From a virus (Duplodnaviria > Heunggongvirae > Uroviricota > Caudoviricetes), in the IMG/VR virus record IMGVR_UViG_2778261645_000001: a DNA stretch of 6,252 nucleotides. One strand, 5' to 3'. Positions 1-6,252 of the stretch are shown here, one piece after another. The notes under the pieces are model-generated. The model did not search any database, had not been told where the DNA came from, and saw only the letters and a program-made list of their open reading frames with translations. The translations under genes and the position numbers were made by a program. Each line of letters starts with the position of its first letter. Within the stretch, counting starts at the first letter, position 1.

Positions 1-60
1 GATGATCTGGCAGCCTGAGTTCACAGATAAAACACTCTCCAGGAAACCCGGGGCGGTTCA
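1..60 (+). mobile_element. Right terminus (IRR) of an IS3-family insertion sequence, IS629/IS1203/IS3411-like; the body of the element lies upstream of the window
   Basis: Positions 36-60 (ctccaggaaacccggggcggttca) are the imperfect inverted complement of 6193-6216 (tgaaccgccccggaaatcctggag) at the other end of the window. Ends in the TG...CA dinucleotides typical of IS3-family ends. Matches my recollection of the IS629 right end. GC content is visibly higher than in the flanking cargo. Confidence 0.75.
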
Positions 61-1259
61 GTTAGTGAGTTGTTCCAAGTATTCTTTAAGTTCCCTAACA
101 TCGTCTGCGTAGAGTCCTGAATAGCTTTCCAGCCACCTCTGGAATTAATCTGTGAACCAAGTTCTTTAGCAAACTTAGGGAGTGCATCAGAGGCTTTAAC
201 ATCACCATTTTTCATCTTATCGAAAAGCTGTTTTTCAGTCAGACCTAAAGCCTTTGCAAATGCCTGAGTAGCACCCGGTAAAGCTTCAGATAGTTGCCCC
301 TTAAGCTCTTCAGCCATCACCTGACCCTTAGAAGCCATCTGCGATACTGCGGTTAATGCTCTTTGAATCTGCTCATCTGAACGACCCATTAAACGGGCAT
401 ATCCAGTTAAGTTTTTAAATAATTCCTCTGAGCCTTCAAGACCCATCGTATTTTTTGCAGATGCACCAAATGAAGCAAACTGTGCTTGTGTTTCGGTTGT
501 GTCCATACCAGTAATTTGAGTTAAATCTTGAATGAACTTTTTGACCTGTGTACTTTGGTCACCGAATACGAAATCAATACTTCTTTCCGATGATGCACGT
601 TGAAGGCCAACTTCCATAATCTTCTGATAACTGGCTAATACAGCCTGCATTGAGATAAATGCACCTGCTGTTTTGACTGCTGCCGAAGACAGGTTATCAA
701 GGCTGCTAGCTGCTCTGTCACCATTAATGCTGGTGGATGTATGACCTCTGGCTTTAGCAATTGCTTCTCGTACACTTGAATTTAGTTTAGCAAGGGCTTC
801 ATTAAACTTGGTGTTATCCATCTGACCAGCTTTACTACTTAATGCGTAAAACTGGCTCTTAATGTATTTCTCGACAATTGGGTTAAGACCTTTCAGCTTG
901 GTCATATTAGCTGAATAAGCTGCTGTGATTGCTCTGTTGCCGCTAATTCGTGGCTGTCTCGGTTGTTTTGGAGGATTAATCGCATCATTAACCTGACTTG
1001 TGAAACGGAAAGCTTTAGTATTTTTTGCTCTAGCTTCCAGACGGTCAAAGGTCTTATTAATTTTCCCTTCCATTGACTTCAAAGAACTTGTCAGATTACT
1101 GTCAAGTTGCTTGGTATCGACCTTAAACGCTCTATTCAAATTCCGTTCAATTCTTTGTGCTGATTGCAAAGCTGCCTTTTCAACTCTTTGCAAGCCCTTA
1201 ACAACGTTCTCGCTGAAGCCTAGCTCAACGATAAAACTATCAACTTTAAACTGTGCCAT
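21..1259 (-). CDS. Phage tail tape measure domain protein, N-terminal ~399 codons only; 3' end interrupted by the IS terminus (likely pseudogene or truncated gene)
   Basis: 412-aa ORF with ATG at 1259 and a Shine-Dalgarno-like AGAGGTGA about 11 nt upstream. The segment GLEGSEELFKNLTGYARLMGRSDEQIQRALTAVSQMASKGQVMAEELKGQLSEALPGATQAFAKALGLTEKQLFDKMKNGDVKASDALPKFAKELG resembles the conserved tape-measure domain (TIGR02675/TP901-type core). The last 12 residues (EPPRVSWRVFYL, plus the stop) are translated from IS terminal sequence (21-59), so the native frame is cut at position 60/61. True tape measure proteins are usually much longer than 400 aa. Confidence 0.6.
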   Translation of the reverse strand: MAQFKVDSFIVELGFSENVVKGLQRVEKAALQSAQRIERNLNRAFKVDTKQLDSNLTSSLKSMEGKINKTFDRLEARAKNTKAFRFTSQVNDAINPPKQPRQPRISGNRAITAAYSANMTKLKGLNPIVEKYIKSQFYALSSKAGQMDNTKFNEALAKLNSSVREAIAKARGHTSTSINGDRAASSLDNLSSAAVKTAGAFISMQAVLASYQKIMEVGLQRASSERSIDFVFGDQSTQVKKFIQDLTQITGMDTTETQAQFASFGASAKNTMGLEGSEELFKNLTGYARLMGRSDEQIQRALTAVSQMASKGQVMAEELKGQLSEALPGATQAFAKALGLTEKQLFDKMKNGDVKASDALPKFAKELGSQINSRGGWKAIQDSTQTMLGNLKNTWNNSLTEPPRVSWRVFYL

Positions 1260-1350
1260 TGTTCATATTTCACCTCTTTAAGCGTGAGCTACGTAAAAAA
1301 TAATTTTTGGTGTAGGTATTAGCTTTACAGATTTCACGTAGCACACATAC

Positions 1351-1393
1351 AAAAAAGGAGAGTTACCTAGATTGCCATCCAGATAATCTCTCC
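1351..1393 (-). terminator. Candidate rho-independent terminator downstream of the 71-aa gene
   Basis: On the minus strand: GGAGAG (revcomp of 1388-1393), a 25-nt loop, CTCTCC (revcomp of 1357-1362), then TTTTTT (revcomp of 1351-1356). The stem is short and the loop long, so this is weak to moderate. Confidence 0.3.
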
Positions 1394-1426
1394 CGTTGAT
1401 TTTACCCAACCAATTCTATTCTCAAA

Positions 1427-1642
1427 TTAATGGTAAACGTAAGAATACATCCCATCATCACCTAAAATCTGTGCGTCACATGGTAATTTATCTAAGCACC
1501 ATGAAGGAATCCTTCTAACCTTTGGTTTGTGTGAGGTGATAACTCGATGTTGATTTCCAATTCGTAGCTTTGGTTTGGCTTGTAACTTTAAGTTTTCACA
1601 AGCCGACTTAATAGTTTCATAACGCTGTTGCAAATCAATCAT
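1427..1642 (-). CDS. Hypothetical small basic protein (71 aa)
   Basis: ORF track gives 1427..1648 with a GTG start. The ATG two codons in (1642-1640) is preceded by GAGGTG about 4-5 nt upstream, so I prefer it. It sits directly downstream of the 235-aa gene. No recognisable motif. Confidence 0.55.
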   Translation of the reverse strand: MIDLQQRYETIKSACENLKLQAKPKLRIGNQHRVITSHKPKVRRIPSWCLDKLPCDAQILGDDGMYSYVYH

Positions 1643-1658
1643 TCTCACCTCACTTAAA

Positions 1659-2366
1659 TTAAATCACTTTGCTGTATTTCTGAGGAACCTTCAGTAGCTG
1701 TTCAATGTCACCTTGCAGGGCAACCTTTTTCTGTGCCTCGTATTCGGCTATCAAAGATTTCATGCTATCAAGTTCTTTTTTAAGCTTTTGCTTTAACTTA
1801 TCCAGTTTACCGGAATAATGCTTAGTCAAATTAGCTTCAGCTAACTGAAGAATCTCTTCATCTGTTTTATCACTCATCAGAATAAATTGACCAGAACCCC
1901 TTAATGCTTGTCTGACATCAATTAACCGGAACCCTTCAGGGATACTTTGAAGAACTTTAGGAACGTCTTCAATCGCTGTACCAAAACCATCATTAAAGTT
2001 TCCTTCATAATAGATAAATGGGTTTGACTTAATCTCGTAAGCAATATCATATTCTGAAGGTTTCGAGGTTTCTTCGAAGTTCTTAACATTGTCGTAAGCA
2101 ATATCAAGTCGAATACGCTGTTCTTTTAACTGTGGGTAATATTCACGCTCAAGATTAAATAGTGCTTCACCCTTGCAGATATCTGGCATTTCTTGAGGCT
2201 CAGGAGACACAAAGGTAATTTGCTTCGGTGACATTCGGATTTCTTGCTCAAGTGCAATTCTTTCATCATGTTCTTTACGCTGAATAGTGATAGCTGGATG
2301 TTCAGTCTGTGGCGACCAGTCACCGAAGCTATCAACCTTTCTACCGCTAATATATAGATTTTCCAT
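1659..2366 (-). CDS. Hypothetical protein (235 aa from the preferred ATG), charged, with a Lys/Glu-rich probably helical C-terminus
   Basis: ORF track gives 1659..2411 with a GTG start. The internal ATG at 2366-2364 (MENLYISGRK...) is preceded by GAAGAGGAAAA about 5-8 nt upstream. Long uninterrupted frame. The nested 61-aa and 81-aa ORFs in other frames are treated as artefacts. Confidence 0.7.
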   Translation of the reverse strand: MENLYISGRKVDSFGDWSPQTEHPAITIQRKEHDERIALEQEIRMSPKQITFVSPEPQEMPDICKGEALFNLEREYYPQLKEQRIRLDIAYDNVKNFEETSKPSEYDIAYEIKSNPFIYYEGNFNDGFGTAIEDVPKVLQSIPEGFRLIDVRQALRGSGQFILMSDKTDEEILQLAEANLTKHYSGKLDKLKQKLKKELDSMKSLIAEYEAQKKVALQGDIEQLLKVPQKYSKVI

Positions 2367-2573
2367 TTCATTTTCCTCTTCTAAGTAATACTCAGTTTTT
2401 AAAAAGCACACCTGACATCCTACAAACTTAGAAGAGGCTTAAAAGGCGTTTGCCAAGTATGCTTTTTAAAAGCTGAAAAAGCCCTAGATAACTAAAACGC
2501 TATAAAGGGCTAAGGTGAAGAAATTAAAACATCTAAAGGATTCAATAACGAATGAACAAGAGTACTTTTCGAG

Positions 2574-2602
2574 ATGACCTCTCAGGTTATATAAGAGGTC
2601 AT
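2574..2602. repeat. Perfect 9-bp inverted repeat ATGACCTCT-N11-AGAGGTCAT in the 435-bp gap
   Basis: Arms at 2574-2582 and 2594-2602 are exact reverse complements. No flanking T-run on either strand, so it is more likely a protein-binding palindrome or RNA hairpin than an intrinsic terminator. Confidence 0.4.
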
Positions 2603-2846
2603 GTAGCGAAAAGCATTGCACCTTTCAGAATGTTCGGTATAGAACATACCTCACCAACTCAGAATATCCATCCATCCATCTGATTATTGAAAGAAATATA
2701 AGAGAGAATTACTCTCCCATAATTAAAATTATGTCATGCTTAAGGTTATTTGTCAACAACTTTTTAACAGATTGGTAACATTTATACTTTAATAGATGCA
2801 CCTGCAATCATACCAATCAATACAAAACAGATAATCACCAATTCCA

Positions 2847-3176
2847 TTAATGCACCACCTTCGAATCCGTCACCAAAATATTGTCAGCGTACAAAATTGC
2901 TATAGCTGCCTTGAGATATCTTTCAGGGCTAATGCTGTATTTGTTCGTTTGCTCGATAACCAATCTTTTCATGTTGCTGTCTTTAATTGGTAGCATCATT
3001 CGAGGCTCGTTAAACTCCACCGAGTGAATAAAGTCAGAGATGTTTTCTGCATTATCAGCCATCAAAGCTAACAGCCTGTCAAAGTCAATGCTAATACCTG
3101 CATCAATGAAGCTTTGCACCATCATAGCAGTGTCGGTATCAATAAAAATCTGTAGTGGGAAGTTTAATTCTCTCAT
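2847..3176 (-). CDS. Hypothetical acidic protein (109 aa)
   Basis: ATG at 3176-3174 with a strong Shine-Dalgarno AAGGAG about 9 nt upstream (minus-strand context AAAAGGAGATTTTAAGAAATG). Clean ORF. No recognisable domain. Confidence 0.7.
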   Translation of the reverse strand: MRELNFPLQIFIDTDTAMMVQSFIDAGISIDFDRLLALMADNAENISDFIHSVEFNEPRMMLPIKDSNMKRLVIEQTNKYSISPERYLKAAIAILYADNILVTDSKVVH

Positions 3177-3197
3177 TTCTTAAAATCTCCTTTTTAC

Positions 3198-3318
3198 CAG
3201 ACCTCCTCAATCGCTCTGTAACGAGCTAAACAGTCTTTTTCAGGGGTAGCCTGTAGGGGTGTGCCACATACCCTAAAATAAGATAGTTTTTTGCGTTAGA
3301 ATGCGATTGAGAGCGTCT
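3198..3318. repeat. Copy 1 of a two-copy ~100-120 bp element with conserved inverted termini (repeat A)
   Basis: Shares a ~46-bp left block (cagacctcYtcaatcgctctgtaacgagYtaaac...cagg) and a ~30-bp right block (ttttttgYgtYagaatgcgattgagagcgtct) with 5125-5222; the centre differs. The outer 16 bp of the two blocks are imperfect inverted complements (13 of 16). It lies in the 169-bp spacer between the 69-aa and 109-aa genes. Confidence 0.6.
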
Positions 3319-3345
3319 GAGAGTGGGTAAAACCGTTTTTTGCCT

Positions 3346-3555
3346 TTAGTCTGAGACTATTAACCCCATCTCACTATGAAATTGACTAAACCAGCTTTTT
3401 GTTACTGAGGTTTTTAGTGTGAAAGATGGGGATTGCATAATCAGATAGATGCCATCATTATCAATGTCGCCCCATCCACTATGTACATCAATTAGATTTC
3501 GAAAATATTTAAAGGCTTTGTCTGTTTTAAGTTTGAGGGTGAATACTTTCTTCAT
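3346..3555 (-). CDS. Hypothetical protein (69 aa)
   Basis: ORF track gives 3346..3567 with a TTG start. The ATG at 3555-3553 has GGGGGAAAGA immediately upstream and forms an ATGA start/stop overlap with the upstream 76-aa gene, indicating translational coupling. Confidence 0.55.
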   Translation of the reverse strand: MKKVFTLKLKTDKAFKYFRNLIDVHSGWGDIDNDGIYLIMQSPSFTLKTSVTKSWFSQFHSEMGLIVSD

Positions 3556-3782
3556 TCTTTCCCCCAATTCTTAATGAGTTCATAGGCCCGTTTAAATTGA
3601 GTCGGGTCACTATAATCAAGCTCGATATCCAGTGACTTTAATTCATAGCGTAACTGCTCAATTTGATGTGGCTTTAGTCTTTTCTTGTTACGGTCAAGCG
3701 TAACATCTTCATATTCTTTTGAGCGGGTATCTTGCCTGATTAGATGTGATGCCAGTCTATAAAATTTGTATCTACATAGCAT
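3552..3782 (-). CDS. Hypothetical small basic protein (76 aa)
   Basis: ORF track gives 3552..3815 with a TTG start. The ATG at 3782-3780 is preceded by a consensus Shine-Dalgarno AGGAGG with a 5-nt spacer, and overlaps the stop of the upstream gene by one base (TAATG). Confidence 0.65.
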   Translation of the reverse strand: MLCRYKFYRLASHLIRQDTRSKEYEDVTLDRNKKRLKPHQIEQLRYELKSLDIELDYSDPTQFKRAYELIKNWGKE

Positions 3783-4054
3783 TAAACCTCCTGTAGCAAA
3801 TTGTTTGGGTGGCAATTTCTCTTATTACCATCCCTGAAGATAATCTTTTTAGTTGCCTGAACTTCATGATGCAAAAACCAGATGACATACTTCACATAAT
3901 AATCACGAGTGCCATAACGAATCATTGGATTACCGTAAGCATCATCTCTTGTCTTAACCTCTCCGCCATCAATCCATTCAAGCATTCCTGTTTCGTAATT
4001 AATCATGAAGTAAGTTGCAAAGAACCGTTTAATATCATCTCGCCATTGCTTCAT
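3782..4054 (-). CDS. Small HNH_3-like (phage HNH endonuclease-like) protein, 90 aa, possibly catalytically degenerate
   Basis: ATG at 4054-4052 with GGAGGT about 7 nt upstream. The C-terminal stretch YYVKYVIWFLHHEV...IIFRDGNKRNCHPNNL resembles the HNH_3 signature (h-H-x-D-G-N-K-x-N-N-x-x-x-N-L), but Arg replaces the His that normally precedes DGN. The protein ends right after NNL. Confidence 0.45.
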   Translation of the reverse strand: MKQWRDDIKRFFATYFMINYETGMLEWIDGGEVKTRDDAYGNPMIRYGTRDYYVKYVIWFLHHEVQATKKIIFRDGNKRNCHPNNLLQEV

Positions 4055-4056
4055 AA

Positions 4057-4335
4057 TCAGACCTCCAGAGACAGCTTGCGAATCTTGATGCTCAATAGAC
4101 GGGCAATATCAATTTTAAAGCTGTTAAGTCCCTTCAAAGTATCTAAAGCGTCCTGAGTAATTCGGATGTGTTTACGACCTTTAGAAACTGGATATTTAAG
4201 TAAATCCGACTCAGTGACCTCTTTAGCAATTGCAAGCTGCATAACAGTCTGATGAGGCAAGCTACTAGCTCGTTTAATTCTGGTAAGCTCGTTAAAAGCT
4301 TCCTCTGAAATACGGGTTAATGTGTGTTTATTCAT
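4057..4335 (-). CDS. Putative ribbon-helix-helix (Arc/CopG-like) DNA-binding protein, 92 aa
   Basis: ATG at 4335-4333 directly abuts the stop of the upstream gene (TAAATG), with AGAGGAA about 7 nt upstream. The N-terminus HTLTRISEEAFNELTRIKRASSLPHQTVMQLAIAK fits a beta-strand, helix, helix RHH pattern. Assignment is by pattern only. Confidence 0.4.
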   Translation of the reverse strand: MNKHTLTRISEEAFNELTRIKRASSLPHQTVMQLAIAKEVTESDLLKYPVSKGRKHIRITQDALDTLKGLNSFKIDIARLLSIKIRKLSLEV

Positions 4336-4893
4336 TTAAAATTCCTCTGTAACTAAATACGGGTCAAACTCGAAATCTGGTTGCTCGTTTTCCATTGGCT
4401 CAATATTCCCAACGGCAATATGATGTTCAACAATACCAATTAGCTTTGCACACATTACAGCAAGCAATGCACAATAGGCATCGGTTGGTAATTCGTAGCT
4501 AAGTCTGGTTGCTTGTCGCTGAAGATGATTTGTCACGGTAGCTGAGTTAATTTCATCAAGGTTCTTTAGAAGATAAAATAGTTTTTTGTTGTATTTCGGG
4601 TGGCCTTCACTTCTACAGAATCCAATGAAAATATCATCAAGCTTACTTGGTAGTTGCTCGTAGCTGTCGAAGTTAGCCAAATAATTTTTGATGCTGTTCT
4701 TTGTTGTTTTGCGTACTGACATATAACGACTCCTCGGTGTAATTGCCCGAATTACTTCGTCAATGCCTTTGCGTTCTGCTCTGGTGAATTTGGGTACTTC
4801 GTGGCTGGTGGGGGAGTTTGTGTAAGCGTAGGAGTTGTGCTTGTTGCGTTCTCTCGATGCCTGAAGCATCGCTCTAAATTCTCTGTCGTTCAT
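4336..4893 (-). CDS. Hypothetical protein (185 aa), promoter-proximal first gene of the small-gene operon
   Basis: ATG at 4893-4891 with AAGGA about 12 nt upstream. It sits about 45 bp downstream of the -10 of a near-consensus promoter. Acidic C-terminal tail (ENEQPDFEFDPYLVTEEF). No domain recognised. Confidence 0.7.
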   Translation of the reverse strand: MNDREFRAMLQASRERNKHNSYAYTNSPTSHEVPKFTRAERKGIDEVIRAITPRSRYMSVRKTTKNSIKNYLANFDSYEQLPSKLDDIFIGFCRSEGHPKYNKKLFYLLKNLDEINSATVTNHLQRQATRLSYELPTDAYCALLAVMCAKLIGIVEHHIAVGNIEPMENEQPDFEFDPYLVTEEF

Positions 4894-4942
4894 TCATAAG
4901 CCAGTCCTTATAATTGTTAATTCTCTGTTAACCATATATACA

Positions 4943-4971
4943 ATACTAGCAGTTTCAAAGACTAATGTCAA
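4943..4971 (-). promoter_or_regulatory. Near-consensus sigma70 promoter for the leftward small-gene operon
   Basis: On the minus strand: -35 TTGACA (revcomp of 4966-4971), a 17-bp spacer, -10 TAGTAT (revcomp of 4943-4948). Correctly placed upstream of the 185-aa gene start at 4893. Confidence 0.6.
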
Positions 4972-4978
4972 GCATTTT

Positions 4979-5008
4979 TTAACATTTCATTAACATCTGT
5001 GGTATAAT
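4979..5008 (+). promoter_or_regulatory. Rightward promoter with extended -10, divergent from the operon promoter
   Basis: -35 TTAACA (4979-4984), an 18-bp spacer, extended -10 TGgTATAAT (5000-5008). Back to back with the leftward promoter; the two -35 elements are 7 bp apart. Confidence 0.5.
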
Positions 5009-5124
5009 GGTTCTATGGGGAGAGTAAAATATAAAGGCGTGGCTATGAGGTTTATTCGATAGGGGTTGGTACAAGCCCAACTAACCGAATCAACTATGTA
5101 TGTCACATGGTATTGCATTGCACA

Positions 5125-5222
5125 CAGACCTCTTCAATCGCTCTGTAACGAGTTAAACGGCCTCTTCAGGTCAACTCATAAGGTCAGGTACTTTTTTGTG
5201 TCAGAATGCGATTGAGAGCGTC
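5125..5222. repeat. Copy 2 of repeat A
   Basis: Same conserved left and right blocks as 3198-3318, with a shorter, divergent centre. Lies about 115 bp downstream of the rightward promoter; its right block ends about 5 nt before the AGGA ribosome-binding site of the 5238 ORF. Confidence 0.6.
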
Positions 5223-5237
5223 TTACAAGGAAAACTA

Positions 5238-5414
5238 ATGGTAAATCTCCCTCCTGAACTGGGGTCACCTGATGTATGGGCTGGTGGAGGTATTGGCCTT
5301 ATTTCAGGTCTGCTGCTTCGTTACGTCCTTGTCAGAGTGCTTGTTGTCTTTAAACTGTTCGGTCGTACATGGACGCTTGACCTTAAGGATAATGACCACA
5401 CAGACCCCCGCTAA
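5238..5414 (+). CDS. Candidate small hydrophobic (single-transmembrane) peptide, 58 aa
   Basis: ATG at 5238 preceded by AGGA with a 7-nt spacer. Product MVNLPPELGSPDVWAGGGIGLISGLLLRYVLVRVLVVFKLFGRTWTLDLKDNDHTDPR has one hydrophobic segment of about 23 residues. ORF track reports it as 5196..5414 from a TTG start. Local GC is higher than the surrounding cargo. A weak CCCC/GGGG hairpin (5429-5452) follows the stop. Confidence 0.3.
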   Translation: MVNLPPELGSPDVWAGGGIGLISGLLLRYVLVRVLVVFKLFGRTWTLDLKDNDHTDPR

Positions 5415-5489
5415 ACCCCCTCCAAAACCCCCTGTACGAGATGGTATAGGGGCATCTTTAGCATTTTGTGCTATCTATTAAAAAATAGC

Positions 5490-5519
5490 TTGACAGAACC
5501 GGAAAGCTGTATCTATCAA
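5490..5519 (+). promoter_or_regulatory. Possible promoter reading into the tandem-repeat region
   Basis: TTGACA (5490-5495), an 18-bp spacer, TATCAA (5514-5519). The -35 is consensus but the -10 is weak, and there is no obvious downstream gene. Confidence 0.25.
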
Positions 5520-5534
5520 GCACTCACCTCTCTG

Positions 5535-5724
5535 ACAGTAATTTCTAAAAGTTCTTATTTTTCAATAAGTTGTAATTAGCCATATATAGAGAACTGACAA
5601 GTCTCTTCACAGAGAACTCTGTAACCTTAACAGTAATTTCTAAAAATGCTTATTTTTCAATAAGTTGTAATCACCCAATATAATAGCTGTTCAGCTTCTT
5701 CACAGGGAAACTTCAGAGGCCTTC
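5535..5724. repeat. Two tandem ~95-bp direct repeats (repeat B), each with a CTTATT-N4-AATAAG hairpin
   Basis: Units start at 5535 and 5630. The first 42 bp are 40/42 identical (acagtaatttctaaaaNtNcttatttttcaataagttgtaat); the remainder is recognisably related but diverged. Embedded inverted repeats at 5554-5569 and 5649-5664. Unit 2 contains a perfect TATAAT at 5679-5684. Confidence 0.65.
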
Positions 5725-5985
5725 TTAACCGCCCCACTAATCGGGAGAAGAGCGATAACCACAGAGAGGGAAGCTCCTTTCTTAACCGACTTCTTAAACA
5801 ATCTTTACAGACCCCGTTCACCAGTCTCAATATTTTATTTCTCGCTCTTCGTTTGTTGCTCGTTTCTATTATTGAGGGGGTTTGAAAAACCTCTGTAAAA
5901 TAACCCTTCCAGTAAAAAGCGAATAACCCCAGAAAGGGGAATCGCCTCTTTAACATTCTCGTAATCAGCACTCTATATGAGAATC

Positions 5986-6192
5986 TTAGCTCAACCTTTG
6001 AACAATCTTGTAAGTGGTGCTTAGAGGCATTCTTAGCGATTCTGCGATGCTCTTGATGGGTTGCCCTTGGTCATACATTTTAATCAACCTGTCAAGCGTC
6101 TGTGCATCGTGTATATGAGGTCTTCCACGTAAACCACCCCTATTAACCACGGCAAGTAAAAGCATTGTGTCACCACAATAGATTGTCTGGGT
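5986..6192 (-). pseudogene. 3' fragment (68 codons plus stop) of a small serine recombinase (resolvase/invertase family), truncated at the IS boundary
   Basis: The minus-strand frame open from 6192 to the stop at 5988-5986 translates to TQTIYCGDTMLLLAVVNRGGLRGRPHIHDAQTLDRLIKMYDQGQPIKSIAESLRMPLSTTYKIVQRLS. The GRP followed by ...G-x-x-I-x-x-I-A-x-x-L-x-x-x-x-S/T-T-x-Y-K pattern matches the C-terminal HTH of resolvases such as gamma-delta, Hin and Gin. The catalytic N-terminal part would have lain where the IS now sits. Not in the ORF track because it has no in-window start. Confidence 0.55.
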
Positions 6193-6252
6193 TGAACCGC
6201 CCCGGAAATCCTGGAGACTAAACTCCCTGAGAAAGAGGTAAACAGGATGACT
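6193..6252 (+). mobile_element. Left terminus (IRL) of a second IS629-like element, including the orfA ribosome-binding site and start codon (ATG 6247-6249)
   Basis: TGAACCGCCCCGGAAATCCTGGAGACTAAACTCCCTGAGAAAGAGGTAAACAGGATGACT matches my recollection of the IS629 left end and orfA start (MT...), with one or two differences. It is the inverted complement of 36-60. Same orientation as the copy at the window start. Confidence 0.75.

Follow-up and report, generated by a model that had tools for sequence, protein, structure and literature searches.

The window analysed here, a stretch of 6,252 nucleotides (nt) listed as viral record IMGVR_UViG_2778261645_000001, is the entire draft-assembly contig NLXC01000068.1 of GCA_002512105.1, and at its left end lies a gene for a phage-type tail tape measure protein that has been cut off by an insertion sequence (IS). 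That an IS1203/IS629 element truncated this gene at codon 400, leaving a pseudogene product, is close to certain, and it is highly probable that the gene belongs to a family of mosaic chromosomal islands and not to a prophage. The best overall explanation, to which we assign a probability of roughly 0.55, is an IS-truncated gene of a mosaic island whose intact form is satellite-like. Truncation by IS1203/IS629 is an ordinary event in itself, and the truncated gene taken alone is routine pseudogenisation; the importance of the case lies in the element that hosts it.

The junction and the chimeric product

The features that define the truncated gene and the two IS ends are as follows, in window coordinates.

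1..60, plus strand: IS1203/IS629-type right terminus (the end with the right inverted repeat, IRR) of the IS3 family, 100% identical over 60 nt to annotated 1310-bp IS1203 copies
21..1259, minus strand: chimeric open reading frame (ORF) of 412 codons, comprising the truncated tape measure protein, a 12-residue IS-encoded tail and a stop, as given in the ORF list
21..59, minus strand: IS-encoded C-terminal tail EPPRVSWRVFYL (codons 401-412) followed by the TGA stop (21-23), from the codon table
60..1259, minus strand: native tape measure codons 1-400, with no internal stops, from alignment and codon table
69..557, minus strand: TMP_3 domain, residues 235-397 (Pfam PF20155, 66.3 bits against a cut-off of 41, E value 3.8e-18)
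1107..1260, minus strand: phage-like first ~50 codons of the tape measure gene, 74-82% identical at the nt level to many Felixounavirus and related phages
6193..6252, plus strand: IS1203/IS629-type left terminus (with the left inverted repeat, IRL, and the orfA ATG), 60/60 nt identical to 13462->13403 of the related O157:H7 locus L004

The original prediction held that the ORF at 21-1259 reads across an insertion junction into the IS inverted repeat, with the native frame ending at position 60/61 and the last 12 residues and the stop supplied by the IS. The codon table and the 100% match to IS1203 bear this out. Codons 1-399 are native. The junction falls within codon 400 (ACT, positions 60-62), which still specifies the conserved Thr. 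Because the native sequence also reads 'tca' at 58-60, just as the IS end does, BLAST matches begin at either 58 or 61 and the position of the junction is ambiguous by at most 3 nt. The annotation of the source assembly likewise places a 412-residue gene at 21..1259 on the minus strand. In alignment with intact relatives of 679 and 710 residues the protein is collinear up to T400 and shows zero similarity thereafter, as expected of the IS disruption and chimeric C-terminus that had been proposed, and the tape measure homology ends exactly at the canonical ...GGTTCA terminus of the IS.

The assignment to the tape measure families that had been suggested from the sequence also stands, as both TMP_3 and TIGR02675 score above their curated cut-offs. 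The TIGR02675 match (residues 288-358, window 186-398) lies inside TMP_3 and reaches 54.9 bits against a cut-off of 21.35 (E value 7.9e-15), and a match to phrog_4036 (tail length tape measure; E value 7e-68) covers positions 232-447 of the 749 in that profile. The 120 closest homologues of the 400 native residues are 94-99% identical and come from E. coli with the exception of one from Salmonella. Nearly all of these are 682 or 696 residues long, most of the shorter ones being flagged as partial, and the phage counterparts have 742-747 residues; a length of about 400 residues is thus not the natural one. The nearest intact homologue (P0006) has 682 residues and is 99% identical. The interruption lies at codon 400 of a gene that, when intact, encodes 682-710 residues. 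Judged by these alignments, some 282 C-terminal residues are absent from the window product.

The retained 1200 nt of the gene contain no stop and no frameshift. By the Nei-Gojobori method, the ratio of nonsynonymous to synonymous divergence (dN/dS) comes to 0.08 for comparison with the nearest intact alleles and to 0.18-0.32 for more distant ones, with dS reaching values above 1; on these estimates the gene family is under purifying selection. Because the retained 400 codons are undecayed and belong to a gene under such selection, the disruption is recent.

What the truncation removed can be read against a solved structure. In the baseplate of the Felixounavirus Bas63, only the last 25 tape measure residues are modelled, and these contact the puncture apparatus and the hub (PMC12609058). 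Intact island relatives are collinear end to end with the Bas63 tape measure, gp017, whereas the window product ends at residue 400 of 682; it keeps the phage-like N-terminus and TMP_3 and has lost LLSSSYPEE, the conserved motif at the C-terminus. Given what the tip does in the structure, we infer that the truncated protein could not be anchored in a baseplate hub and hence would not template a tube. With the hub-docking C-terminal tip missing, it is best regarded as a pseudogene product that would not nucleate a tail tube.

The two IS termini stand in the same orientation. Their terminal inverted repeats of 25 nt (36-60 and 6193-6217) are imperfect, 88% complementary, and have TG...CA ends. 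Window positions 1-60 equal 12212->12153 of L004 (100%), the end distal to the transposase start, and the first two orfA codons, ATGACT (6247-6252), are the only part of the transposase coding sequence inside the window; the L004 copy of IS1203 is itself annotated with a transposase frameshift. IS1203 and IS629 are, we assume, iso-forms of one element. The interval between the two termini, 61-6192, is unique DNA and is flanked by two IS copies in direct orientation. We also considered a single IS within a circular molecule of 6.1 kb; this is excluded because the inner flanking triplets differ, being gtt at 61-63 and ggt at 6190-6192. The event is of the same kind as the inactivations by IS629/IS1203 in mobile elements of E. 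coli and Shigella, which likewise involve an IS3-family element with TG...CA ends and a chimeric C-terminus produced by read-through.

DNA beyond either IS end lies outside the contig, and one could suppose that the junction is an artefact of draft assembly and that the IS end does not truly adjoin the gene. Consistent with this, the 6252-bp contig extends at either end exactly 60 bp into a multicopy repeat and then breaks off. A short-read contig that reaches a fixed short distance into a repeat is, however, the usual mark of a true boundary between unique and repeated DNA. The same contig was moreover recovered in 2 samples, and homology stops precisely at the ...GGTTCA terminus of the IS, so we give an assembly artefact almost no credence.

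A family of mosaic chromosomal islands

Of 5426 complete E. coli genomes, 526 (~10%) carry DNA related to the window, always in the chromosome; it is mosaic and 84-93% identical, with no instance above 95% to the window. Beyond E. coli, whole islands or homologues of their proteins are present in E. fergusonii, Salmonella and Citrobacter. A scan of GTDB representatives, with peptide patterns that reach close relatives only, returned two loci, in Citrobacter and in Escherichia sp. We inspected eight relatives, of which L001, L002, L004 and L011-L013 are intact and L005 and L009 are intact apart from their IS. All eight are islands of 11.5-13.3 kb with the same compact gene order, integrated in yecE (L001, L004, L011-L013) or in the tonB-yciI interval (L002, L005); L009 is found in Citrobacter.

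The order begins with a large serine recombinase, a protein of 254-259 residues annotated as 'phage baseplate/Dit-like', the tape measure protein, a 71-residue ORF and a 235-residue ORF. These are followed by about six small ORFs, including a 90-residue HNH_3 protein, a divergent promoter region, a 58-residue ORF, an iteron-bearing stretch devoid of ORFs, and cargo; small ORFs number 8-10 per island. The recombinase of the relatives has 506-507 residues with Resolvase, Recombinase and Zn_ribbon_recom domains, and its gene is not on the window contig. The cargo varies, consisting of a Dam methyltransferase with a helix-turn-helix (Dam-HTH), an AP2/ERF-type protein, or a small resolvase. In all intact relatives the tape measure gene adjoins the gene for the 'Dit-like' protein, identified below as a tube initiator, whereas the window contig ends in the IS at this point. 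The window copy is therefore the middle of an island, with the tape measure gene cut on the left and the Dam-HTH gene on the right, and the genes for tube initiator and recombinase have become separated from the remainder.

Searches with Pfam and PHROGs of the window ORFs, and the annotations and called genes of the eight relatives, revealed no capsid, portal, terminase, sheath, tube or lysis genes. This bears on the suggestion, made with the original prediction, that loss of an intact tape measure would render a prophage tail-defective and cryptic: because the relatives carry no head, sheath or tube genes, there is no complete tail for the truncation to disable, and the suggestion does not hold for islands of 11.5-13.3 kb that are equally devoid of packaging and lysis genes. 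A degraded or cryptic prophage, in which the IS insertion would be one step of decay, would account for a gene of phage origin and for the flagging of such regions as phage-like by annotation pipelines and IMG/VR. It sits poorly with the single gene set, free of head, sheath, tube, portal, terminase and lysis genes, that is common to eight or more relatives from two genera and two chromosomal sites, with related phages that are strictly virulent Ounavirinae myophages of ~86 kb, and with purifying selection on the tape measure, which is unexpected for a decaying remnant. PHASTER was, in addition, negative at what is most likely the same locus (PMC11069274). We consider this explanation very improbable.

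We had entertained the idea that the island of the O157:H7 relative is the element SpLE2 of strain Sakai, and dropped it; one paper places SpLE2 near sbcB, while the island lies in yecE.

IS damage recurs in the family. The tape measure gene of E. coli HCM-28C-2 is split by ISEc12, an element of the IS21 family (L005 7500-10090), and that of Citrobacter sp. ANG330 is interrupted around residue 352-370 by an IS21-family element encoding IstA and IstB (L009 11125-13060). In E. coli Z1323CEC0008 (hit H46) the tape measure is annotated as two pieces beside an IS3-family transposase, and the equivalent of the 58-residue ORF in the O157:H7 relative is interrupted by an IS1203 (L004 12153-13462) with a target duplication of 3 bp, GTA. 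Since these cases are few and the tape measure gene is the largest target, making up ~18% of the island, its repeated interruption is not evidence of selection.

A further idea is that the 412-residue protein is functional and selected for a role, for example as a dominant-negative binder of the phage chaperone, tube or terminator partners by way of its phage-like N-terminus. Its 40 N-terminal residues are ~80% identical to those of phages, TMP_3 is intact, the ribosome-binding site is unchanged, and the same gene has been interrupted independently by IS in other lineages. Yet the interruption points differ (around residues 232, 352-370 and 400) and involve different IS families, the gene is simply the island's largest target, and the exact product was read in one contig only, recorded in 2 samples. 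A selected function for the truncated protein is therefore quite improbable.

Relation to FelixO1-like phages and the satellite-like reading

The intact island tape measure finds its best phage matches, at 100% coverage, 26-32% identity and E values of about 1e-55, in myophages of ~86 kb, nearly all of them FelixO1-type phages of E. coli and Salmonella. It corresponds to gp017 of Bas63 (PDB 9NDY; E value 6e-65), with the C-terminal LLSSSYPEE aligned. Island and phage tape measures are most alike at their ends, with ~80% identity in the 40 N-terminal residues and 70-100% in the final 10; between these tips identity falls to 15-50%. At the N-terminus, which resembles that of Bas63 gp017, 31 of 39 residues are identical to the tape measure of phage JH2. 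The island protein is 32-65 residues shorter than its phage counterpart.

The neighbouring 'Dit-like' protein is more closely related to phage. It is 67-80% identical to JH2 gp087 (265 residues), whose gene lies directly after the JH2 tape measure gene, and it corresponds to gp018, the tube initiator of the Bas63 baseplate (PDB 9NDY; E value 1e-128), being almost identical to it over residues ~15-190 and diverged over the C-terminal ~65. In Bas63 a hexamer of this protein adapts the three-fold hub to the six-fold tube (PMC12609058). About 530 nt of the island gene match 213 records of Felixounavirus and related phages, nearly all at 90-95.5% identity, the best at 94-95.5%. The remaining island genes have no detectable counterpart in the complete JH2 genome.

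At the DNA level the tube-initiator gene (L001 7223-7996, minus strand, and its equivalents) is a sharp mosaic, in which nt ~30-559 are 94-95.5% identical to Felixounavirus DNA. The last ~215 nt are unrelated to phage DNA; their counterpart in Bas63 encodes the extension that traverses the baseplate.

An exchange of this kind may already have been noticed from the phage side. An in-silico study of the virulent phage vB_EcoM_DE7 found 544 bp identical to DNA in two E. coli chromosomes and read this as transfer of a tape measure gene, with the phage as recipient, and PHASTER reported no prophage at the matching E. coli locus (PMC11069274). This locus is very probably the tube-initiator patch of the island family.

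The islands and phage JH2 also share short stretches outside genes. ORF-less regions on the cargo side match JH2 non-coding DNA over 27-117 nt at 78-93% identity, the matches of 63-117 nt being 78-86% identical. In JH2 they lie at ~76760-76820 and 84738-85198, and in the islands at L001 15756-15824 and 16435-16461, L002 15482-15549 and 16081-16194, L005 15781-15843, and L012 4171-4438. These shared stretches may act in cis, for instance as promoters or as signals for packaging or replication.

Given the sharp patch of 91-95% DNA identity to phages and the mosaic build of the island, it could be argued that recombination with infecting phages brought the genes for tape measure and tube initiator into the island as passengers without function there, in which case the truncation would be inconsequential. 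Against this, no part of the island is as constant as these two genes among the relatives from E. coli, Citrobacter and Salmonella, and dN/dS stays at 0.08-0.33 over divergences up to dS > 1. The tape measure, at ~28% identity to phage, has also kept its full length and both termini, which argues for long-term selection within the island lineage. Passive carriage is thus improbable.

The closest parallel that we recognise is with the PLEs, satellites of Vibrio cholerae. PLE11 and other PLEs encode a tape measure protein, a chaperone and a baseplate hub protein, which take the place of those of the virulent myophage ICP1 in chimeric tails that are ~10 nm shorter (PMC12987554). Apart from predicted genes in Vibrio PLE-like elements and in some cf-PICIs, no tape measure has been reported in other satellites (PMC12987554). 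PLE-like elements are recognised by their large serine recombinase, a gene content that is mostly hypothetical, an origin region free of ORFs, an HNH nuclease and a small membrane protein; among them is an element of V. casei described as 'littered with insertion sequences' (PMC9410903). The islands resemble PLEs in being chromosomal, in their large serine recombinase, and in consisting mostly of hypothetical genes without capsid genes. They likewise have a repeat region free of ORFs, a gene for a small HNH nuclease and an ORF for a small membrane protein. As in PLEs, the island's own tape measure and a hub-proximal tail protein are homologous to those of a virulent myophage, and the tape measure is shorter than that of the phage; decay by IS is shared with the V. 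casei element. Identity to the phage proteins is 20% (tape measure) and 41% (BhuB) for PLE and ICP1, and 28-33% (tape measure) and 67-80% (tube initiator) for island and Felixounavirus.

There are also differences. The host is a member of the Enterobacteriaceae and the presumed helper one of the Ounavirinae, the second tail protein is a tube initiator and not a hub protein, and no initiator of the RepA_N/PolI type or chaperone has been recognised. Compared with the presumed helpers themselves, the order of tape measure and, directly after it, tube initiator is that of gp017 and gp018 in Bas63, and the tape measure is collinear over its full length with conserved tips. In contrast, the phage genes for these two proteins are part of a virulent genome of 86 kb, with chaperone genes on one side and baseplate genes on the other; the island carries no more than the pair. 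The cf-PICIs resemble the island as satellites outside Vibrio with a predicted tape measure; unlike the island, they carry their own capsid and packaging module in a different organisation and steal whole tails.

By analogy with PLEs, we propose that when a FelixO1-like virulent myophage infects, an intact island would contribute a tape measure and a tube initiator of its own, and through their conserved interfaces the two could plug into the phage hub and tube. The resulting chimeric tails would be slightly shorter than those of the phage, by a predicted ~5-10 nm from the 32-65 fewer residues at ~0.15 nm each, and could serve transfer of the island, sabotage of the phage, or both. In the window genome this tail-remodelling capacity would have been lost, the tape measure at a minimum being broken. 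That an intact island works in this way, as a PLE-like satellite or tail-remodelling parasite of FelixO1-like phages, we put at somewhat less than even odds. More tentatively still, the family may constitute a class of Enterobacteriaceae satellites, not yet described, that parasitises Ounavirinae by means of chimeric tails, the window copy having been inactivated recently by IS1203/IS629. The satellite classification rests on homology and architecture. Full-text literature searches for a connection of satellites or chromosomal islands to Felixounavirus, FelixO1 or Ounavirinae returned nothing relevant, and the family appears not to have been described as satellite-like before.

Several observations weigh against a satellite. 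A scan of IMG/VR found no island-sized or circular contig, and no replication initiator, packaging function or capsid-redirecting function was recognised. The two candidates for a chaperone, the 71- and 235-residue proteins, have no detectable similarity to the PLE1 chaperone 5IR0, to 2OB9 or to the JH2 chaperones. The high DNA identity of the tube-initiator gene could reflect gene flow between phage and island in either direction without a parasitic life cycle. The islands, at 11.5-13.3 kb, are smaller than PLEs (~17-18 kb), and in the window itself the 3' part of the tape measure gene is not on the contig, which ends in the IS.

Part of this evidence would suit a defence island that interferes with tail assembly, in which a diverged tape measure and tube initiator poison FelixO1-like tails with no transfer of the island. 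Such an island would draw on the same phage homology and phage-compatible interfaces, and the lack of recognised packaging and replication functions and of virome-type contigs speaks for it. Tail assembly is a known target of defence, for example of Tai systems, and Rta of PLE11 is another example of tail targeting (PMC12987554). On the other side, PADLOC gave no strong match (only PDC-M63B at 2e-4), and the island looks like a mobile element able to move between sites and genera: it has a large serine recombinase, mosaic modules and iterons, uses two integration sites, and is represented in Citrobacter and Salmonella. The conserved termini of the tape measure and core of the tube initiator suggest productive incorporation, a point that is not decisive. 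We regard a pure defence role as unlikely, if less so than the other alternatives, and prefer the satellite-like reading of the intact island.

If the islands are satellites or tail-targeting defence elements, they would offer a PLE-type system in E. coli and Salmonella, hosts that are genetically easy to work with. Phages that might serve as helpers can be obtained from public collections (FelixO1, and Bas63 from the BASEL set), and the structure of a helper baseplate has been solved. The selective entry of a satellite tape measure and tube initiator into tails, a question left open by the work on PLEs, would then become testable. Felixounavirus phages are widely proposed for therapy and biocontrol against Salmonella and E. 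coli, and islands that exchange DNA with the core of their tails could affect both efficacy and gene flow. For annotation, the labels 'tape measure protein', 'phage baseplate protein' and 'transposase' within such islands are no evidence of a prophage.

Other features of the window

To the right of the tape measure gene, the window contains the following features.

1288-1298 and 1332-1342, no strand: 11-nt imperfect inverted repeat with a 33-nt spacer (gctacgtaaaa / tttcacgtagc, 10/11 positions matching)
1351..1394, minus strand: hairpin resembling an intrinsic terminator, followed by U6; 17-bp stem with one bulge and a 4-nt loop (1394->1357), T-tract 1356-1351
1427..1642, minus strand: 71-residue ORF, which in every island immediately precedes the tape measure gene, according to the gene order of the relatives
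1659..2366, minus strand: 235-residue ORF, open to 2411; homologues have 235-236 residues, and no domain supports the 'transposase' label given by PGAP
5238..5414, plus strand: 58-residue ORF, divergent from the main operon, whose translation contains the hydrophobic segment GGGIGLISGLLLRYVLVRVLVVF
5415..5985, no strand: stretch of ~570 nt without ORFs, containing two 48-nt iterons
5986..6192, minus strand: 3' remnant (last 68 codons) of a Dam-methyltransferase/HTH gene, 98% identical to L005 14846-15258; the intact gene encodes 222 residues

The region between the 71-residue gene and the tape measure gene had been described as containing a terminator-like hairpin (1351-1393) and an 11-bp imperfect inverted repeat, and both are present. 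The hairpin (1394->1357) folds at -22.6 kcal/mol with a z score of -6.0, and none of 200 shuffled sequences folds as well. It is retained in L001 and L002, where the outer stem and the T-tract are conserved and the inner stem and loop have changed with pairing preserved; the L002 equivalent folds at -25.7 kcal/mol (z score -6.0). A simple consensus terminator scan of the window did not report it. Judged by fold and conservation, it is a credible intrinsic terminator or attenuator between the two genes. The 11-nt inverted repeat sits just upstream of the tape measure ribosome-binding site, and its arms pair in the fold; it is present in L001 and deleted in L002. By itself it is weakly non-random, with a rough chance of ~10% of arising in an intergenic region of this size.

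These elements had been taken to suggest that the tape measure gene is a separate transcription unit. A strong, conserved hairpin does separate the genes, but the promoter scan found no sigma-70-like promoter between it and the tape measure start codon. Regulated read-through, or a promoter of a type outside the scan, is at least as likely as an independent transcription unit. In the window, the region upstream of the tape measure gene, like its ribosome-binding site, is unchanged.

The 235-residue ORF probably starts at the ATG at 2366 and not at the GTG at 2411, to judge from the length of its homologues. Close homologues also occur in E. fergusonii and in Salmonella enterica, including serovar Typhi. 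RefSeq and PGAP name these proteins of 235-236 residues 'transposase', for which models from Pfam, NCBIfam and PHROGs provide no backing; the match to PDC-M63B in PADLOC, at 2e-4, is weak. A 250-residue version of the ORF (1659-2411) had no match by tblastn against 50,697 phage records, and a PDB sequence search with the 250- and 71-residue products returned nothing meaningful and no match to 5IR0. An AlphaFold2 model of the 235-residue protein, built on a shallow alignment of 22 sequences that are 87-94% identical, is unreliable (pLDDT 58, pTM 0.35).

Across the nine window ORFs other than the tape measure, Pfam, PHROGs, NCBIfam and PADLOC yielded HNH_3 in the 90-residue ORF, HTH_7/HTH_23 in the Dam remnant and the weak PDC-M63B match, with no structural family and no strong defence family among them, and the Pfam scan of the window ORFs detected no RepA_N or PolI domain. 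The second IS1203 junction, at 6192/6193, removes the 154 N-terminal codons of the Dam-HTH gene, which hold the methyltransferase domain, and leaves the HTH_7/HTH_23 tail; the 59-residue ORF at 5986..6165 is this remnant. Neither this second junction nor the fact that the window is an entire contig figured in the original prediction.

The ORF-less stretch at 5415-5985 is a candidate replication origin by analogy with the ORF-less origin region of PLEs. Its two iterons, at 5535-5582 and 5630-5677, are direct repeats of 48 nt, 92% identical and 95 nt apart, and each holds the palindrome CTTATTTTTCAATAAG.

Upstream of the 235-residue gene, in the 2697-2756 region of the minus strand, lies the strongest promoter-like site of the window (TTGACA and CATAAT at a spacing of 17 nt, plus an extended TG; 11/12 positions). 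A terminator-like hairpin with a T-tract (2721->2697) follows within ~10 nt. Together they could produce a short transcript or act as an attenuator.

An Rfam scan of the whole window at E values up to 1 gave zero matches. An element of ~100-120 nt occurs in two copies, at 3198-3318 and 5125-5223, with a variable centre. Its arms, which between the copies are 88% (42 nt) and 84% (45 nt) identical, pair with one another (AGACCUCYUCAAUCGC...GCGAUUGAGAGCGUCU), and the RNA fold z scores on the plus and minus strands are -4.9 and -5.9 for the first copy and -2.9 and -2.7 for the second. Homology between island variants breaks at the edges of these elements, at ~3154-3187, 3322, 5127 and 5228. They could be structured RNAs or boundaries at which modules are exchanged.

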